This document shows positions 3,968 through 23,763 of a DNA stretch of 25,755 bases, piece after piece. The notes under the pieces were generated by a model. That model made no database searches. It had not been told where the DNA came from and worked only from the letters and a program-made list of their open reading frames with translations. How positions within the stretch are numbered: the first letter of the stretch is position 1; each line of letters starts with the position of its first letter. This stretch comes from a virus: UHGV virus genome UHGV-0287771, one strand, 5' to 3'. The translations under genes and the position numbers were made by a program.

Positions 3968-4291
3968 ATGAAGATGCCAGAAAAACATGACCTGTTAGCC
4001 GCCATTCTCGCGGCAAAGGAACAAGGCATCGGGGCAATCCTTGCGTTTGTAATGGCGTACCTTCGCGGCAGATATAATGGCGGTGTGTTTACAAAAACAG
4101 TAATCGACGCAACGATGTGCGCCATTATCGCCTGGTTCATTCGTGACCTTCTCGACTTCGCCGGACTAAGTAGCAATCTCGCTTATATAACGAGCGTGTT
4201 CATCGGCTACATCGGTACTGACTCGATTGGTTCGCTTATCAAACGCTTCGCTGCTAAAAAAGCCGGAGTAGAAGATGGTGGAAATCAATAA
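3968..4291 (+). CDS. S: class I holin, lambda S type (dual-start antiholin/holin)
   Basis: 107 aa beginning [27 protein letters not shown] with Met1-Lys2-Met3 dual-start motif; near-identical to lambda S as recalled; three hydrophobic segments. Confidence 0.9.
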
Positions 4292-4751
4292 TCAACGTAA
4301 GGCGTTCCTCGATATGCTGGCGTGGTCAGAGGGAACTGATAACGGACGGCAGAAAACCAGAAATCATGGTTATGACGTCATTGTAGGCGGAGAGCTATTT
4401 ACTGATTACTCCGATCACCCTCGCAAACTTGTCACGCTAAACCCCAAACTCAAATCAACAGCCGCCGGACGCTACCAGCTTCTTTCCCGTTGGTGGGATG
4501 CCTACCGCAAGCAGCTTGGCCTGAAAGACTTCTCTCCGAAAAGCCAGGACGCTGTGGCACTGCAACAGATTAAAGAGCGTGGCGCTTTACCGATGATTGA
4601 TCGCGGTGATATTCGTCAGGCTATCGACCGTTGCAGCAATATCTGGGCTTCACTGCCGGGCGCTGGCTATGGCCAGTTCGAGCATAAGGCTGACAGCCTG
4701 ATTGCAAAATTCAAAGAAGTTGGCGGAACGGTCAGAGAGATTGAGGTATGA
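4275..4751 (+). CDS. R: endolysin, lambda R type (lytic transglycosylase)
   Basis: 158 aa beginning [39 protein letters not shown]; near-identical to lambda R as recalled; overlaps the S stop. Confidence 0.9.
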
Positions 4752-5185
4752 GCAGAGTAACCGCGATTATCTCAGCTCTGGTTATCTGCATCATCGTTTG
4801 CCTGTCATGGGCTGTTAATCATTACCGTGATAACGCCATGACCTACAAAGAGCAGCGCGATAAGGCCACATCCACAATCGCTGACATGCAGAAGCGTCAA
4901 CGTGATGTAGCAGAACTTGACGCCAGATACACAAAGGAGCTTGCTGATGCTAACGCGACTATCGAAAGCCTCCGTGCTGATGTTTCTGCTGGGCGTAAGC
5001 GCCTGCAAGTCGCCGCCACCTGTGCAAAGTCAACGACCGGAGCCAGCAGCATGGGCGATGGAGAAAGCCCAAGACTTACAGCAGATGCTGAACTCAATTA
5101 TTACCGTCTCAGAAGTGGAATCGACAGGATAACCGCGCAGGTTAACTACCTGCAGGAATACATCAGGACGCAATGCCTTCGATGA
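4748..5185 (+). CDS. Rz: i-spanin Rz
   Basis: 145 aa with N-terminal transmembrane anchor ([30 protein letters not shown]) and coiled-coil periplasmic domain; ATGA overlap with the R stop; lambda Rz-like N-terminus. Confidence 0.85.
4947..5132 (+). CDS. Rz1: o-spanin Rz1 (lipoprotein), embedded in the +1 frame of Rz
   Basis: Strong SD AAGGAG 4934-4939, 7 nt before ATG 4947; signal peptide with lipobox (LLGVSAC), Pro-rich mature part; lies wholly inside Rz. Confidence 0.65.
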
Positions 5186-18047: not shown

Positions 18048-20441
18048 ATGGCTAATTACCGTGATTTGTTAGAGCAGGCTGGCGCACGTTACGGTGTGCC
18101 AGAAGGGTTGATGACTGCACTGGGTGCCAAGGAGTCTTCTTACAACCCTGCCGCAGTAAGCTCCGCCGGGGCTGTAGGATTGACTCAGGTCATGCCTGGG
18201 ACATGGCGTGATATGGGTTATACCGATGAGCAAATGCAAAACCCCGAATATCAGGCTGACGCTGGCGCGCGCTATCTGGCAAAGATGTACCAGCAGTTTG
18301 GTAACTGGCGTGACGCTCTTCAGGCTTATCATGACGGTCCCGGCAACGTTATGAAGGCAAAGCGTGGTGAATATACGCCAGGACCTGAAGGCCGCGGTTA
18401 CGTTGATGATCGCTTTGCTCAATGGGCGGGTGACCCGGTGACAGACTCAACAGTCGAACAGCGCGCCACCTCTGCAAAGGTACATCCTCAGCAAGACCCT
18501 AACAACCCGTTTGCACAACTGGAAGCACAGTCATCCGAACAAGTATCGGCATCAGGCGTGCAGTCAGACCCAAATAATCCATTTGCTCAGATTGAGCAGC
18601 AGGCAGCCAGTCAGCAGCCACCTCAACCCGTAAGTTCTGTCGCACCGAAACCTGTTCAGCAGCAAGGCGGAATAATGTCTGACCTTGGTAATGGACTTGC
18701 TGAAACCGGGCGCGGCTTACTACAGGCAGGAATCAACGTAGCGAACATACCTGCTGAACTCACTGATGCTGTAACAAGCGCGGCGGCTTGGGCTGGCGGT
18801 AAACTCGGCATTGGCGATGGTACATATCAACCAGCACCACGAGTAACAACGCAGGGATTAGAGCAGGACTTTGGCCTTCAGCAAGGCGCGCTGACTCCAC
18901 AAACGACAGAGGGAAGGGTATTTGCCGAAGCATTGCCTTACCTCACTCCTGCTGGCGTTGAGAGAGCGGCAACACAGGCACCAACACTTGCTGGTCGAAT
19001 TGCTCAGGGGGCAACTCGCCTTCTAGCAGAAAACGCAGTTGGTTCACTTGCTGCAAACAGTGCGAAAGATGATGCGGAAGCACTCGCCACCGATTTAGGC
19101 GTTGGTGTGCTGGCTGGCGGTGCTATTAACGCTGCCGGACGTGGATTAGGTGCTGCTTATCGTGGTGTTCGTGGTTCGATAGCACCAGAAGCTCAACAGG
19201 CTATCAGGTTTGCAGAGCGTGAAGGAGTTCCTCTGCACACCACAGACCTGTTACAGCCTACTTCCCGCGCCGGGAAAATGGCGCAGACTACAGCAGAAAA
19301 TATCCCCCTGGCTGGCACAAGCGGAATGAGAGCAACGCAACAGGAAGCGAGAATCCAGTTGGTGCAGAGATTTGCCGATAAATTCGGTGAGTATGATCCA
19401 GCGGTTGTTATTGACAGCCTTAAAGCGAAAACATCAGGAATTCGTCGTGCCGCCGGTAATCGACTGGAGCAGGTTCAGAATGCTATGGCTGGAGTAAACA
19501 TTCAGCCTGCGCGAGCAATTCAGCAGATTGATACAGAAATATCTAATCTGCAGAAGCTTGGTAAGGTCGCCGATAACGAGACTATTTCAAAACTTCAGTC
19601 CTATCGTGATGAGCTTGTTCGCAATGCTGGTCCTGATGGTCCGGTAAATCTGGATTTGAAGCAATTAAGCGATCTGCGCAGCCAGTTCAGAATGGACGTG
19701 AAGGGGGAACGACCAGTGTTGCCAAACCGTTCCGATGCTGCCATTCAGCGCGTTTACAAGGCGATGACAGACGATATCAATGGTGCCATTGGTCAGAATC
19801 TTGGCAACGATACTCTCCGTAAATATCAGCAGGCCAATGCCGTCTACGCTGACGAAGCGGCGAAACTAAAGAATACCAGGCTGAAGAATGTTCTCATGAA
19901 AGGCGACCTGACGCCGGAAGTTGTCAACAACATGCTATTCAGCAAGAACAAATCGGAAATTAAGACGCTGTATAACTCAGTTGGTCGTGTTGGCAGGGCG
20001 CAAATGCGCAATGGCATCATTGGAAAGGCGATGGAGAAATCAGGTGGTTCCCCTGACCAGTTCCTTCGGCAGCTTAACATCCTGCAAAACCAGACTGGCA
20101 TCACATTTAAGGGGCAGGACGCTGCTTATCTGAAAGGATTAAAAAACTATCTGCAATCCACGCAGCAGGCTGCAAAAGCAGCAGTAACAACACCCACAGG
20201 GCAGCAAACTATCCCGTTCATTATTGGGTATGGGACGGCAATGAACCCGGCGACAACTGGCGCAGCAGTAAGCTACGGACTTCTTACTCGCGCCTATGAG
20301 AGCGAGCCATTCAGAAATGCAATGCTCCGAATGGCAAACACCCCACGCGGATCTACAGCGTTTGAGAAAGCCATGCAGCAAGCGCAAAAAGCGATTAATG
20401 CACTGACGCAGGGTGCTAAGTCTGATTCGTTGTCAGAATAG
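18048..20441 (+). CDS. DNA ejection/internal protein gp16-like with N-terminal lytic transglycosylase (SLT) domain
   Basis: 797 aa; N-terminal SLT signature (GLMTALGAKESSYNPAAVSSAGAVGLTQVMPGTW...YHDGPG); last gene of the ejection-protein trio. Confidence 0.75.
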   Translation: MANYRDLLEQAGARYGVPEGLMTALGAKESSYNPAAVSSAGAVGLTQVMPGTWRDMGYTDEQMQNPEYQADAGARYLAKMYQQFGNWRDALQAYHDGPGNVMKAKRGEYTPGPEGRGYVDDRFAQWAGDPVTDSTVEQRATSAKVHPQQDPNNPFAQLEAQSSEQVSASGVQSDPNNPFAQIEQQAASQQPPQPVSSVAPKPVQQQGGIMSDLGNGLAETGRGLLQAGINVANIPAELTDAVTSAAAWAGGKLGIGDGTYQPAPRVTTQGLEQDFGLQQGALTPQTTEGRVFAEALPYLTPAGVERAATQAPTLAGRIAQGATRLLAENAVGSLAANSAKDDAEALATDLGVGVLAGGAINAAGRGLGAAYRGVRGSIAPEAQQAIRFAEREGVPLHTTDLLQPTSRAGKMAQTTAENIPLAGTSGMRATQQEARIQLVQRFADKFGEYDPAVVIDSLKAKTSGIRRAAGNRLEQVQNAMAGVNIQPARAIQQIDTEISNLQKLGKVADNETISKLQSYRDELVRNAGPDGPVNLDLKQLSDLRSQFRMDVKGERPVLPNRSDAAIQRVYKAMTDDINGAIGQNLGNDTLRKYQQANAVYADEAAKLKNTRLKNVLMKGDLTPEVVNNMLFSKNKSEIKTLYNSVGRVGRAQMRNGIIGKAMEKSGGSPDQFLRQLNILQNQTGITFKGQDAAYLKGLKNYLQSTQQAAKAAVTTPTGQQTIPFIIGYGTAMNPATTGAAVSYGLLTRAYESEPFRNAMLRMANTPRGSTAFEKAMQQAQKAINALTQGAKSDSLSE

Positions 20442-20531: not shown

Positions 20532-21017
20532 TTATCTGATGTTACTGCTACTGTTGCATGTTACCGTGTTTTCAAATCCTGAATTGCAGTTTGTATATGT
20601 GTCAACGCGTGTTGGGTAAGGTTGAGTTATAACAGGCTGGCGCGCTTTTTGCTCAATTGCTTGCATAGTGTTTACAGCCTGATAATTCAATAAAGCCTGC
20701 TGGAATGCTTGGCTTTGTGCTATTTGTTGGGCTTGTTCTTGGCTTTGTAATTGAACATAAAGATTCTGAAGCTCAAGTCTTGCCTGTGCGTCACTTATCT
20801 TGCCTTCATCGACACCTTGCCCGAGCATCTTTGCAGCAAGGACATACAGCTTAGGTGTTGGTGCTGATGCCATGCGTGAGTCGTTTTTCACACTGGCATC
20901 AAGGCAATTAGCCATATCGCTAAGCTTTTGATAGCGTTGTTCGCAACTTGCTTGATAGTCACTTACTTTTGCGCATCCAACCAGCAGAATCGGGATAATT
21001 AACAGTGATTTTTTCAT
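20532..21017 (-). CDS. lipoprotein (candidate superinfection-exclusion/moron protein), 161 aa
   Basis: Strong SD AAGGAGAG 8 nt upstream of ATG (minus strand, 21017); signal peptide with lipobox MKKSLLIIPILLVGC; Gln-rich helical body; in the slot of the P22 sieA/immI region. Confidence 0.7.
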   Translation of the reverse strand: MKKSLLIIPILLVGCAKVSDYQASCEQRYQKLSDMANCLDASVKNDSRMASAPTPKLYVLAAKMLGQGVDEGKISDAQARLELQNLYVQLQSQEQAQQIAQSQAFQQALLNYQAVNTMQAIEQKARQPVITQPYPTRVDTYTNCNSGFENTVTCNSSSNIR

Positions 21018-21087
21018 ATGGTTAACTCTCCTTAGTTTTTCACAGGATATCATGAAGGCAATACCATTTTAGCCGGAAACTAGATTT

Positions 21088-21357
21088 CTATGTTTCCTTT
21101 TTATTATTGCTATACATGGTCTTAAGCGTATCAAAGACAATTTTCTTAACTATCTCAGATTGTTGTTCTGCCATACGCTCTGCATCGTCAATGTAAACAG
21201 ATGCAGAGCTTTGTTTAGCCAATGATTCTTCAATCGCTGCAATTATCTCTGAGTTCAGAGACCTGTTATTCATCTTCGCACGCTGTTTAATTTTCGCGTG
21301 GAGTTCATGCGGAAGTCTCAAGTGAAACTGCGCCTCGTCGTATTTGCTGTACATCAT
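21088..21357 (-). CDS. mnt: Mnt-like ribbon-helix-helix repressor (Arc/MetJ family)
   Basis: Translation matches recalled P22 Mnt along its length (RSLNSEII ... DDAERMAEQQSEIVKKIVFDTLK vs RSMNSELL ... NDAERLADEQSELVKKMVFDTLK); start placed at the Met preceded by an SD-like GTGAGG. Confidence 0.8.
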   Translation of the reverse strand: MMYSKYDEAQFHLRLPHELHAKIKQRAKMNNRSLNSEIIAAIEESLAKQSSASVYIDDAERMAEQQSEIVKKIVFDTLKTMYSNNKKET

Positions 21358-21489
21358 TGATGCCTCACCAGTTGGGTGGAATGGCATCGTAAAACCTACT
21401 GGATAAATCAACAATCGTACCACTTCGGTATGTAACTATAGCTTACCGCAGCTCTGCTGTGGGGATTAATTTCGCCTGGAGCACATCAA

Positions 21490-23763
21490 ATGACTGATAC
21501 CAATTACCTGGTCTCTATGCCGTCCACTCCTTTTTCGGCGCCACGAGCATTTAAGTCAGTGGCGAACGGGAAAATCTACATCGGAAACCCTGACACTGAT
21601 CCGGTAAATCCTGCCAACCAAATCCCGGTATATGTCGTTAATGAGGATGGCTCCGAGGTTCAGGTTTCACAGCCAATCATCATTAACGCCGGCGGCTTTC
21701 CGGTCTATAACGGCCAGATTATGAAGTTCATCACGAAACAGAACTTCAGTATGGCGGTCTATGACGCATATGGAGCGCAGCAATTTTATTGGCCCGATTT
21801 ATCTCGCATAGATCCAGATACAGCATACAACACCATCATAAATAATATTGGCGCACAAGATGGACTGAAGTATGTTGGTCAGTGCTCAGATTTAACAGCT
21901 CTCAGGGCTATTGAGCCAACCGTTTCTAACCAGCGAATTAGTGTCGCTGCATACGCTCCCGGGTGGGCCTCGCTGACAGGTGCGCCTGTTGGCGGTGGTG
22001 AGTTTTATTATGACCCCAATGATACGACATCTTCTGATGACGATATTTTTATTTTTGTAACGGCTGGCGGTAAGCGCTGGAAGCGTGCTTGCTCCGGCAA
22101 AAAAATCTGCCTGGAATGGAAAGGGGTAAGGCCTGGTGATGATGCAGCTCCGGCATTAAATGCTATCGGCACTTACCTGAATAACAAGGCCATCGCAAAA
22201 GGTACTGTTTCCGGGCTTCCTCGAGTGCATGTCGGCGCAGGCGTTTACCCCCTGTCAGATACTGTCAACCTCACATACGCATTTCGCATAAAGGCGGTTG
22301 GTAATGTAGAATTTACGACAACGGACTGGGATAGCACGGTTGCAAAAGATATTTTCACTATCGCTAACCCTGCAAATATGCCTGCAGTTCCTGACAAGGG
22401 GTATGCAAGCGGTGACCCGTGGCTTAATGGTTCTGATGGCACCATTTTAATCACTGGTCCCGTCTATGATGCTGCGGTCACAAACAATGTGGTTGGCGTT
22501 GGTGTGGGAAACCTCGTCACCGGGCGGACGCCCGTTCGTGGTAATGTGATGCATGGCGTTTCAATCCGTTACTGTGGCAGTGCGATTTACCTGCGCATGC
22601 GTCGTCTGTACCTGACGTCATTTAGTCATGTTCACTGCGAGCTTAATAACACACATATTACCTGTCCTAACCAGTCAGGCACCGAAGACTCCGGGGAGCG
22701 TATTGCATTTCATGAGTGCGTTTTTGGCGGGTGCAGGAATCAGCACGTTTATGTATATATGACACCGGCTCTGCATTTTGAATCATGTTCATTCGACTTT
22801 GCTCAGGGGAGCGGTATTTATCTGGATGGGATATCTGAGTATGGTCTTTTTTCATTCACAAACTGCCATTTTGAGAACTTCAATAACTACCTTATTAATG
22901 CCCAGACCGGTTCTCGGGTCACTCTTCTGATTACTAATTGTGATGTATTCAATAACAGCCAGACTACGCCGGTTACCGCAGCATCTGCTTCATCCCCTTC
23001 CCGTCCTATGTTTAATCTTGCCAACGGCGGGAATGTGGTTATTAACGGATTTAAACTGAACTATTCATATCGACCTCTTGGTTCATTGAATATGCTGGTT
23101 TCGCCCGAGACACAAACTGCAGATACAAGAACACGAGTATCAGTTAACGGACTGACGGCGGGTGATAAGTCAATGACACCGTGCCCCGCAGCAGCGCATA
23201 TCATGAACCGATCAAATGATTTTAGCGGGGAAACTGTGGGTTCCACAATTACCAGCAAAATCGCATACACAACAACACATGTTCAGCCAGTACAGGACAT
23301 TGCAAGTTCGTGGGGCTCAGGGATGTCCGCATCTGTTGTCGCTGACGGTAGCACAAAGGGTTTGCAGATGGTGTCAGCAGACAATACTAACTTCGGTTAC
23401 ATTCAGCCAAAAACTGCGATTCCTGTTTCGCCAGGGCGCGCCTACTCAGCATATTTCAGTATCCAGAAGTTGCTGGCGGCTGGCGGAATCAACTGGTCTG
23501 TGAGCTATCTGTGGTACGACAAAGACGGGAACCTGTTATCTAACGATAGAGCTCTGTCAGGTCGGTTTTCCAGTGTATATAACGACACGACATTGCCGGG
23601 ATATTCAACAGATGCTACAGCAAACGGTAATAGAAAGTTGAGCACAACCATGTGCGTACGCATTGCGCCCCCCGGCGCTGCTTACTGTCGCCCATACTTT
23701 AGTGTGTCGTCGTTTACTGGAACTATAAATATCGTCAATTTTTTGATGTGGGAGTATCAGTAA
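21490..23763 (+). CDS. tailspike protein (P22 gp9-type N-terminal head-binding domain with divergent receptor-binding body)
   Basis: First ~110 aa resemble recalled P22 tailspike N-terminus ([35 protein letters not shown]...); remainder is beta-rich (Asn/Gly/Thr/Ser-rich) without recognised identity. Confidence 0.85.

Follow-up and report, generated by a model that had tools for sequence, protein, structure and literature searches.

Phage-encoded lipoproteins such as Llp of T5, Cor of φ80, N15 and HK022, and Ltp of the Streptococcus phage TP-J34 exclude phages at the cell envelope. Llp and Cor are lipoproteins that inactivate FhuA, while Ltp is a lipid-anchored, all-helical protein, expressed from the prophage and encoded next to the repressor, which binds an ejected phage protein and so blocks DNA injection. 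Phage P22 possesses sieA, in the gene order 16 (+), sieA (-), PsieA, mnt terminator, orf59a (-), mnt (-), arc, ant and gene 9 (+). Its product is a polytopic inner-membrane protein with 3-4 predicted transmembrane helices and a cytoplasmic motif, FxRYPxEAxxFNK (PMC10883804), and SieA proteins, which fall into types A, B and C, block the passage of DNA at the inner membrane (Leavitt et al. 2024, PMC10883804).

Here we study a lipoprotein gene that lies at the place of sieA in the window, i.e. the whole analysed stretch of 25,755 nucleotides, which is a P22-like (Lederbergvirus-type) prophage. The features referred to in the following are, in coordinates of the window:

Lysis cassette: holin 3968-4291, λ-R-type endolysin 4275-4751, Rz 4748-5185 and embedded Rz1 4917-5132.
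18048-20441, plus strand: ejection protein of the gene-16 type, bearing an SLT domain at its N-terminus; its gene converges on the lipoprotein gene.
20532-21017, minus strand: lipoprotein gene, 161 aa plus stop, a member of PHROG 6067.
20973-21017, minus strand: signal peptide and lipobox MKKSLLIIPILLVG-C15, with the Cys15 codon at 20973-20975 (PS51257 pattern).
21018-21056, minus strand: leader common to P22 sieA (TTCATGrTATCCTG...AAAACTAAGGAG), with the Shine-Dalgarno sequence TAAGGAG at 21028-21034.
21057-21087, minus strand: junction to the mnt stop, without a hairpin terminator.
21088-21357, minus strand: mnt (Arc and Mnt Pfam domains), the lysogeny-maintenance repressor gene and probable head of the transcript.
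21490-23763, plus strand: tailspike with a head-binding domain of the P22 type, bordering the slot on the right.

Several traits of this prophage deserve mention in their own right. Its immI region (21088-21490) is reduced: mnt is kept, but arc, ant, sar, orf59a and the mnt terminator are missing, and mnt directly abuts the tailspike gene. The gene-16-type protein (797 aa) has an SLT lytic-transglycosylase domain (Pfam E = 2.9e-25), and the rest of it is 94-100% identical to many 666-aa versions without the SLT module; its appearance is that of a mosaic, an ejection protein to which a murein-cleaving head was added. Rz1 has a lipobox of its own (GVSAC) and a Pro-rich body. Finally, part of the segment 23700-25755 matches sequence in 5100 of 5426 E. 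coli genomes, where the annotations name a glycine-rich domain protein, hypothetical proteins and an integrase. The segment may be the prophage end or integration region, or a widespread element.

The lipoprotein ORF is a real gene under strong constraint, because pairwise dN/dS against orthologs (dS 0.16-0.62) is 0.04-0.10 over the whole length, and because the protein matches PHROG 6067 ("unknown function") over residues 1-161 of 161 (E = 6.5e-110). The low dN/dS is shared equally by the head, the Gln-rich helix and the C-terminus. Mechanically, the ORF extends to an upstream ATG at 21053. This extension is not conserved, and the 161-aa start at 21017 was therefore taken: the homologs begin with MKK, the RefSeq annotation has the 161-aa form, and the sequence of phage Gally diverges from the window just 5' of the lipoprotein ribosome-binding site. 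The strong ribosome-binding site of the original prediction is indeed present, as a 7-nt Shine-Dalgarno sequence, TAAGGAG (21034-21028), 10 nt 5' of the ATG at 21017, and the gene lies on the minus strand, opposite, as was also claimed, to the late operon; it is convergent with the gene-16-type gene.

In the N-terminus, MKKSLLIIPILLVGCAKV, a pair of basic residues precedes a hydrophobic core of 10 residues and the lipobox L-V-G-C15. A PROSITE PS51257-type pattern ([LVI][ASTVI][GAS]C) is matched by the window protein, at MKKSLLIIPILLVG|C15-AKV, and by 74 of 74 close homologs. Position +2 is occupied by Ala in the window protein; in the 74 homologs it is Ala in 68, Val in 4 and Thr in 2, and never Asp. 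Under the Lol sorting rule a +2 residue other than Asp directs a lipoprotein to the outer membrane, and Ala at this position thus predicts outer-membrane sorting. The signal peptide is the only hydrophobic segment of the protein.

The mature protein would consist of 147 aa, including 21 Gln, and is organised as follows:

20733-20972, minus strand: conserved N-terminal helical head (residues 16-95) with the invariant C25 and C38, a putative disulfide; the superfamily core.
20640-20732, minus strand: Gln/Ala-rich extension (residues 96-126) of a long helix, of variable length across the superfamily.
20604-20639, minus strand: Pro-rich linker (residues 127-138), after a recombination junction 'ARQP' (~125-128).
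20535-20603, minus strand: C-terminal β-hairpin (residues 139-161), with a conserved pair of cysteines, C144 and C154, in positions suited to stapling it.

With the 74 close homologs, AlphaFold was confident for residues 18-95 only; with a 100-sequence alignment that includes distant relatives, the model has a mean pLDDT of 91.4 and a pTM of 0.67. It contains helices 18-28, 32-45, 47-50 and 53-70 and one continuous 51-residue helix (76-126), followed by the Pro-rich linker (127-138) and the C-terminal β-hairpin, modelled at 139-159. The description of the product as a lipoprotein with a Gln-rich helical body thus holds: besides the PS51257 lipobox, 15 of the 51 residues between 76 and 126 are Gln, and this segment is modelled with high confidence as a single helix. 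Exactly four Cys occur in the mature protein of 75 of the 85 lipobox-bearing superfamily members, and the placement of the four conserved Cys in the model fits two periplasmic disulfides.

Proteins that are nearly identical up to about residue 128 continue with one of two unrelated Cys-hairpin C-termini, ...TNCNSGFGNTVTCNSSSNIR or ...TTNCTTYGNQTRCQSY. For example, P0007 and P0036, both from Citrobacter, differ in this manner, with the junction at the ARQP motif (residues ~128-161 of the window protein, 20535-20636). This swap at ARQP suggests that the C-terminal hairpin is a separable module, which possibly sets specificity.

A lipid anchor at the N-terminus of a 51-residue helix, together with a spacer whose length varies across the family, would also be compatible with a structural or periplasm-organising stalk similar to Braun's Lpp, which would alter the spacing between outer membrane and peptidoglycan or the mechanics of the envelope and affect phages, secretion or vesicles only indirectly. 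We consider such a role quite improbable, however, since the protein has no Lpp Pfam match, ends in Arg (...SSSNIR) and not in the Lys that Lpp uses for peptidoglycan cross-linking, and does not display a clear heptad pattern. Moreover, head and hairpin are conserved and the stalk is not.

A protein search returned 94 homolog clusters from Enterobacterales, with hosts including E. coli, Citrobacter, Serratia, Klebsiella aerogenes, Cronobacter, Yersinia, Pectobacterium, Morganella, Providencia and Tatumella. All cluster names read "hypothetical protein" except one "lipoprotein" and one spurious "GspK". In the profile scans of the window protein itself a match to GspK (E = 0.001) covers the Gln-rich helix only and was not regarded as meaningful. 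Among 5426 complete E. coli genomes the gene occurs in 186 (~3.4%), always on the chromosome, and a P22-like gp10 gene in 917, so that roughly one fifth of the E. coli genomes with a P22-like prophage carry the lipoprotein gene. Only five records of a phage collection encode the lipoprotein (Gally, vB_EcoP-720R6, VSe13, MS2 LVA and Proteus phage Brookers).

When 1.84 billion representative proteins were searched with a profile, the family grew to 234 clusters at E<=1e-3. Members of this superfamily are mostly 116-190 aa long (median 139) and share a plan of signal peptide or lipobox, a C...CE...C(L) head, a very variable spacer and a C-terminal TTxC...G...C hairpin. The lipobox pattern is missing in 15 of 100 members, several of which have an ordinary signal peptide, and the module accordingly works in the periplasm. 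No Pfam or NCBIfam family is shared across the 100 members scanned; weak matches to TraV, RcsF and similar proteins in 1-7 of the 100 were treated as lipobox or Cys noise. The window protein matched no defence family of PADLOC-DB 2.0 at E<=1, Foldseek against BFVD gave no match at E<0.5, and a sequence-profile search of the PDB found no relative. A literature search by accession and keyword did not find a paper describing the family. The gene thus falls into a so far undescribed superfamily of periplasmic lipoproteins, and homology to any characterised family is absent.

Most of the distant superfamily members are metagenomic and without names, and the distant relatives lie mostly outside recognisable phages. 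Their contexts are heterogeneous, including glycosyltransferase/Wzt genes, TIR and nSTAND genes, an outer-membrane efflux gene and one phage immunity region, and no conserved neighbour gene was found among them. In two of the loci (L091 8001-10329, L092 512-6956) the distant relative P0169 is located directly upstream of genes for a TIR-domain protein and for a large NTPase of the nSTAND/WD40 kind, a neighbourhood that looks like a defence island. Two IMG/VR sequences of an unrelated temperate phage (L094 6609-7354, L095 3913-4658) contain a PHROG 6067 member (E = 2.8e-17) whose reading frame overlaps, at the stop codon, the gene for a CI-like HTH repressor, to which it is translationally coupled. 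A Cro-like gene and replication genes are transcribed divergently from it. A position adjoining the repressor, as found there, is the classic site of prophage-expressed exclusion genes. Likewise, in Pectobacterium the lipoprotein gene is the last of a four-gene operon headed by Arc/Mnt. Taken broadly, the window gene could be a founding member of a superfamily of two-disulfide periplasmic lipoproteins that has repeatedly been placed in lysogeny-maintenance operons of phages, here as a non-homologous SieA replacement that would stop DNA delivery from the side of the outer membrane and periplasm, with the swappable hairpin as specificity module; we put this composite proposal forward as tentative and rather doubtful as a whole.

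Within P22-like prophages the position of the gene is constant. In 87 loci with the lipoprotein gene, it lies, wherever the contig is long enough to judge, between a gene-16 homolog, with which it is convergent, and mnt or the tailspike gene, in the orientation of mnt and sieA. The same slot is occupied in Tatumella, Providencia, Morganella, Pectobacterium and one metagenome-assembled genome. In the window the gene is on the strand opposite to the late genes and 70 nt downstream of mnt, and the presence of mnt alone between lipoprotein gene and tailspike gene is the commonest arrangement (37 of 84 loci).

The relationship to sieA is most apparent in locus L071, where a stretch of 934 bp that spans mnt, orf59a and the annotated PsieA matches P22 at 92% identity. 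This match ends 7 nt before the sieA start codon, and from there the lipoprotein ORF replaces sieA, so that the slot is the sieA slot in the strict sense, as the original prediction had it. The gene orf59a was found in 18 of the lipoprotein loci, and the block TTCATGrTATCCTG...AAAACTAAGGAG is common to the P22 sieA leader, L071, VSe13 and the window. Of the sieA leader the window retains only the proximal ~40 nt (21056-21018); P22 orf59a, the mnt terminator and the -35 region of PsieA are absent between mnt and the lipoprotein gene.

A tblastn search with P22 SieA against the window and all lipoprotein loci gave a match only in P22 itself, and none of the ORFs between the lipoprotein gene and the tailspike gene in 84 loci encodes a polytopic membrane protein. 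As neither a SieA match nor a polytopic ORF is present in the slot, the lipoprotein gene and sieA behave as alternative cassettes for one site in the sequences compared. It is strongly supported that the lipoprotein gene is an accessory gene (moron) of the P22-like prophage and that it represents a cassette replacement in which the leader and ribosome-binding site of sieA were kept.

As regards transcription, no terminator-like hairpin was found between mnt and the lipoprotein gene and no convincing sigma-70 promoter for the latter; neither the promoter scan nor the terminator scan rose above chance, and the RNA of the two flanks folded no better than shuffled sequences did. Because PsieA and the mnt terminator are missing in the window, the gene is most likely co-transcribed with mnt as the distal gene of this transcript and not expressed from a strong promoter of its own.

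Expression data exist for the ortholog in the prophage Gally of E. coli LF82 (LF82_138/GALLYPH_13), which is 96% identical to its counterpart in the window. In overnight LB cultures LF82_138 had 70 normalised reads, the median for the prophage being 15.6 (PMC9928086, tables S1/S4), which is 4.5-fold above background; with the 5-fold cut-off of the authors it was not scored as a moron (PMC9928086). Its log2(fpkm+5) values in samples of bacteria only were 6.29/5.96 in LB and 7.87/8.15 and 8.02/8.22 in the B1 and B6 samples, and in macrophages 10.29/10.30 at 1 h and 8.70/8.54 at 6 h, the latter corresponding to a log2FC of 2.55 against LB (q = 4.7e-27; PMC9928086). The adjoining ejection genes of Gally remained at 2.3-4.2 under all conditions (PMC9928086). 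Since LF82_138 is transcribed while the ejection genes are silent, its transcription in the lysogen is independent of the late operon. We extend this result to the window by inference, because the upstream regions of the two genes differ. Expression from the prophage, as originally proposed, is thus borne out by a 96%-identical ortholog transcribed in a lysogen; the window gene is most likely on the mnt transcript.

Gally and 9 further loci possess, in addition, a second, divergent lipoprotein gene (GALLYPH_14, L002 3753-4172; MKRIIGVVAGAILLSGC..., 139 aa), which is absent from the window. In LF82 it reaches log2(fpkm+5) values of 9.4-11.0 outside LB, compared with 4.8-6.2 in LB. Outside LB it is thus expressed above LF82_138, and it was likewise not flagged as a moron by the authors of the LF82 study.

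The immediate neighbourhood of the gene also raises the question of a role in the lytic cycle, either as a lysis or release accessory resembling an o-spanin or as self-protection against the phage's own SLT-bearing ejection protein. Indeed, the gene adjoins that for the SLT-domain ejection protein, and o-spanins are likewise small outer-membrane lipoproteins with Cys and Pro-rich regions. Yet the gene runs against the late operon and its transcription takes place when late genes are off, the phage has a complete lysis cassette of its own (holin, endolysin, Rz and Rz1), and the lipoprotein gene co-occurs with gp16 without the SLT module, which is present in only 9 of the 87 loci. A lytic-cycle function is therefore very improbable. 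As specific candidates, an o-spanin of the Rz1 type was rejected because the window gene is on the other strand, 15 kb from Rz/Rz1, and has no i-spanin partner, and an inhibitor or immunity protein for the neighbouring SLT domain because of the same rarity of the module.

The data from LF82 are relevant to another explanation as well, according to which the gene is a lysogenic-conversion factor that, like Bor/Iss, confers on the host a benefit unrelated to phages, such as resistance to serum and complement, survival within macrophages or tolerance of envelope stress. LF82_138 is induced ~16-fold at 1 h in macrophages compared with LB, and it is also higher in the other samples of bacteria only. 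The predicted outer-membrane location, the strong purifying selection, which fits a conserved target on the host side, and the many superfamily members outside phages point in the same direction. On the other hand, the protein has no similarity to Bor (Pfam, E<=1), curing of the Gally prophage left the survival of LF82 in macrophages unchanged (PMC9928086), and the clade is limited to one slot of one phage type, which otherwise holds an exclusion gene. We regard a host-benefit factor as the main, if rather unlikely, alternative to exclusion.

Exclusion of incoming phages at the envelope is the candidate function that we favour, with a probability of about 40%, given the position of the gene, its expression and the predicted localisation of its product. 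Export of the product and its lipidation at Cys15 are strongly supported; it is then predicted to be anchored in the outer membrane, on the inner leaflet that borders the periplasm, where it would display the small helical head, a helix of ~75 Å and the β-hairpin, with four Cys placed for two disulfides. The lysogen would then be protected after adsorption from the side of the outer membrane and periplasm, as a counterpart of SieA at the inner membrane. As to the target, interference with the gp7/gp20/gp16 conduit, through which ejection across the periplasm proceeds, is conceivable and on the unlikely side. The alternative would be a conserved component of the host envelope that incoming phages need; an action of this kind in analogy to Llp and Cor, which would disable a receptor protein of the outer membrane from its periplasmic side, is unlikely.

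Some of the evidence weighs against exclusion. Lipoprotein genes that are 96-99% identical adjoin three or more types of gp16 and many types of gp20, and thus the lipoprotein does not co-evolve with the ejection proteins of the resident phage. This independence and the strong purifying selection argue for a conserved target, and the same two features weaken a direct arms-race model of exclusion; the signature of an arms race, expected of a protein that binds fast-evolving phage proteins, is missing, which counts against the exclusion reading. Its probability is further lowered by the rise of LF82_138 in macrophages, which fits a role in host interaction equally well, by the failure of LF82_138 to reach the moron cut-off of the LF82 study, by the absence of homology to known exclusion or defence proteins, and by the location of the distant relatives mostly outside recognisable phages.

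The lipoprotein is annotated everywhere only as "hypothetical protein". If it does exclude phages, it would represent a new protein family and a new site, the outer membrane or periplasm, at which DNA delivery by podoviruses is blocked, complementing the recently solved mechanism of SieA, and it would bear on the host range of phages for therapy in E. coli, Salmonella, Klebsiella aerogenes, Serratia, Yersinia, Proteus and Morganella. If it is instead a factor of host fitness, its induction inside macrophages in an adherent-invasive E. coli strain would be relevant to pathogenesis.

Comparison with the known systems places the window protein beside several of them and within none. A homology search against the Cor, Llp, Bor and SieA families, as the original prediction had proposed, revealed no membership: the matches to Cor (PHROG 1119, E = 0.039, residues 1-31 only) and Llp (PDB 8a60_B, E = 0.48, residues 2-32 only) correspond to the signal peptide alone and are non-significant, and Pfam Lambda_Bor was not matched at E<=1, where DUF2802 (E = 0.39) is the sole Pfam match. 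With λ Bor/Iss the protein has in common that it is a prophage-expressed moron for a lipoprotein of the outer membrane (a predicted localisation in the case of the window), but its gene belongs to a different phage type and a different slot. Like T5 Llp and the Cor proteins of φ80, N15 and HK022, it is a phage-encoded lipoprotein with putative disulfides and possible action at the envelope; it is, however, more than twice their size and its predicted fold is different.

The likeness to P22 SieA concerns the slot, the leftward orientation, the size class (161 vs 164 aa), the leader with its ribosome-binding site, expression from the prophage and, in some relatives, the presence of the PsieA promoter upstream of the lipoprotein gene. 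By contrast, the window protein is a secreted lipoprotein whose body is helical and soluble and which has no transmembrane segment beyond the signal peptide, whereas SieA is polytopic; the motif FxRYPxEAxxFNK is absent, and there is no sequence similarity to P22 SieA, the sole type compared by sequence. A non-homologous replacement of SieA is the most economical reading of these features. For the favoured mechanism the closest analogue is Ltp of TP-J34, even though that protein differs from the window lipoprotein in its Gram-positive host, its unrelated sequence and its fold of HTH repeats.
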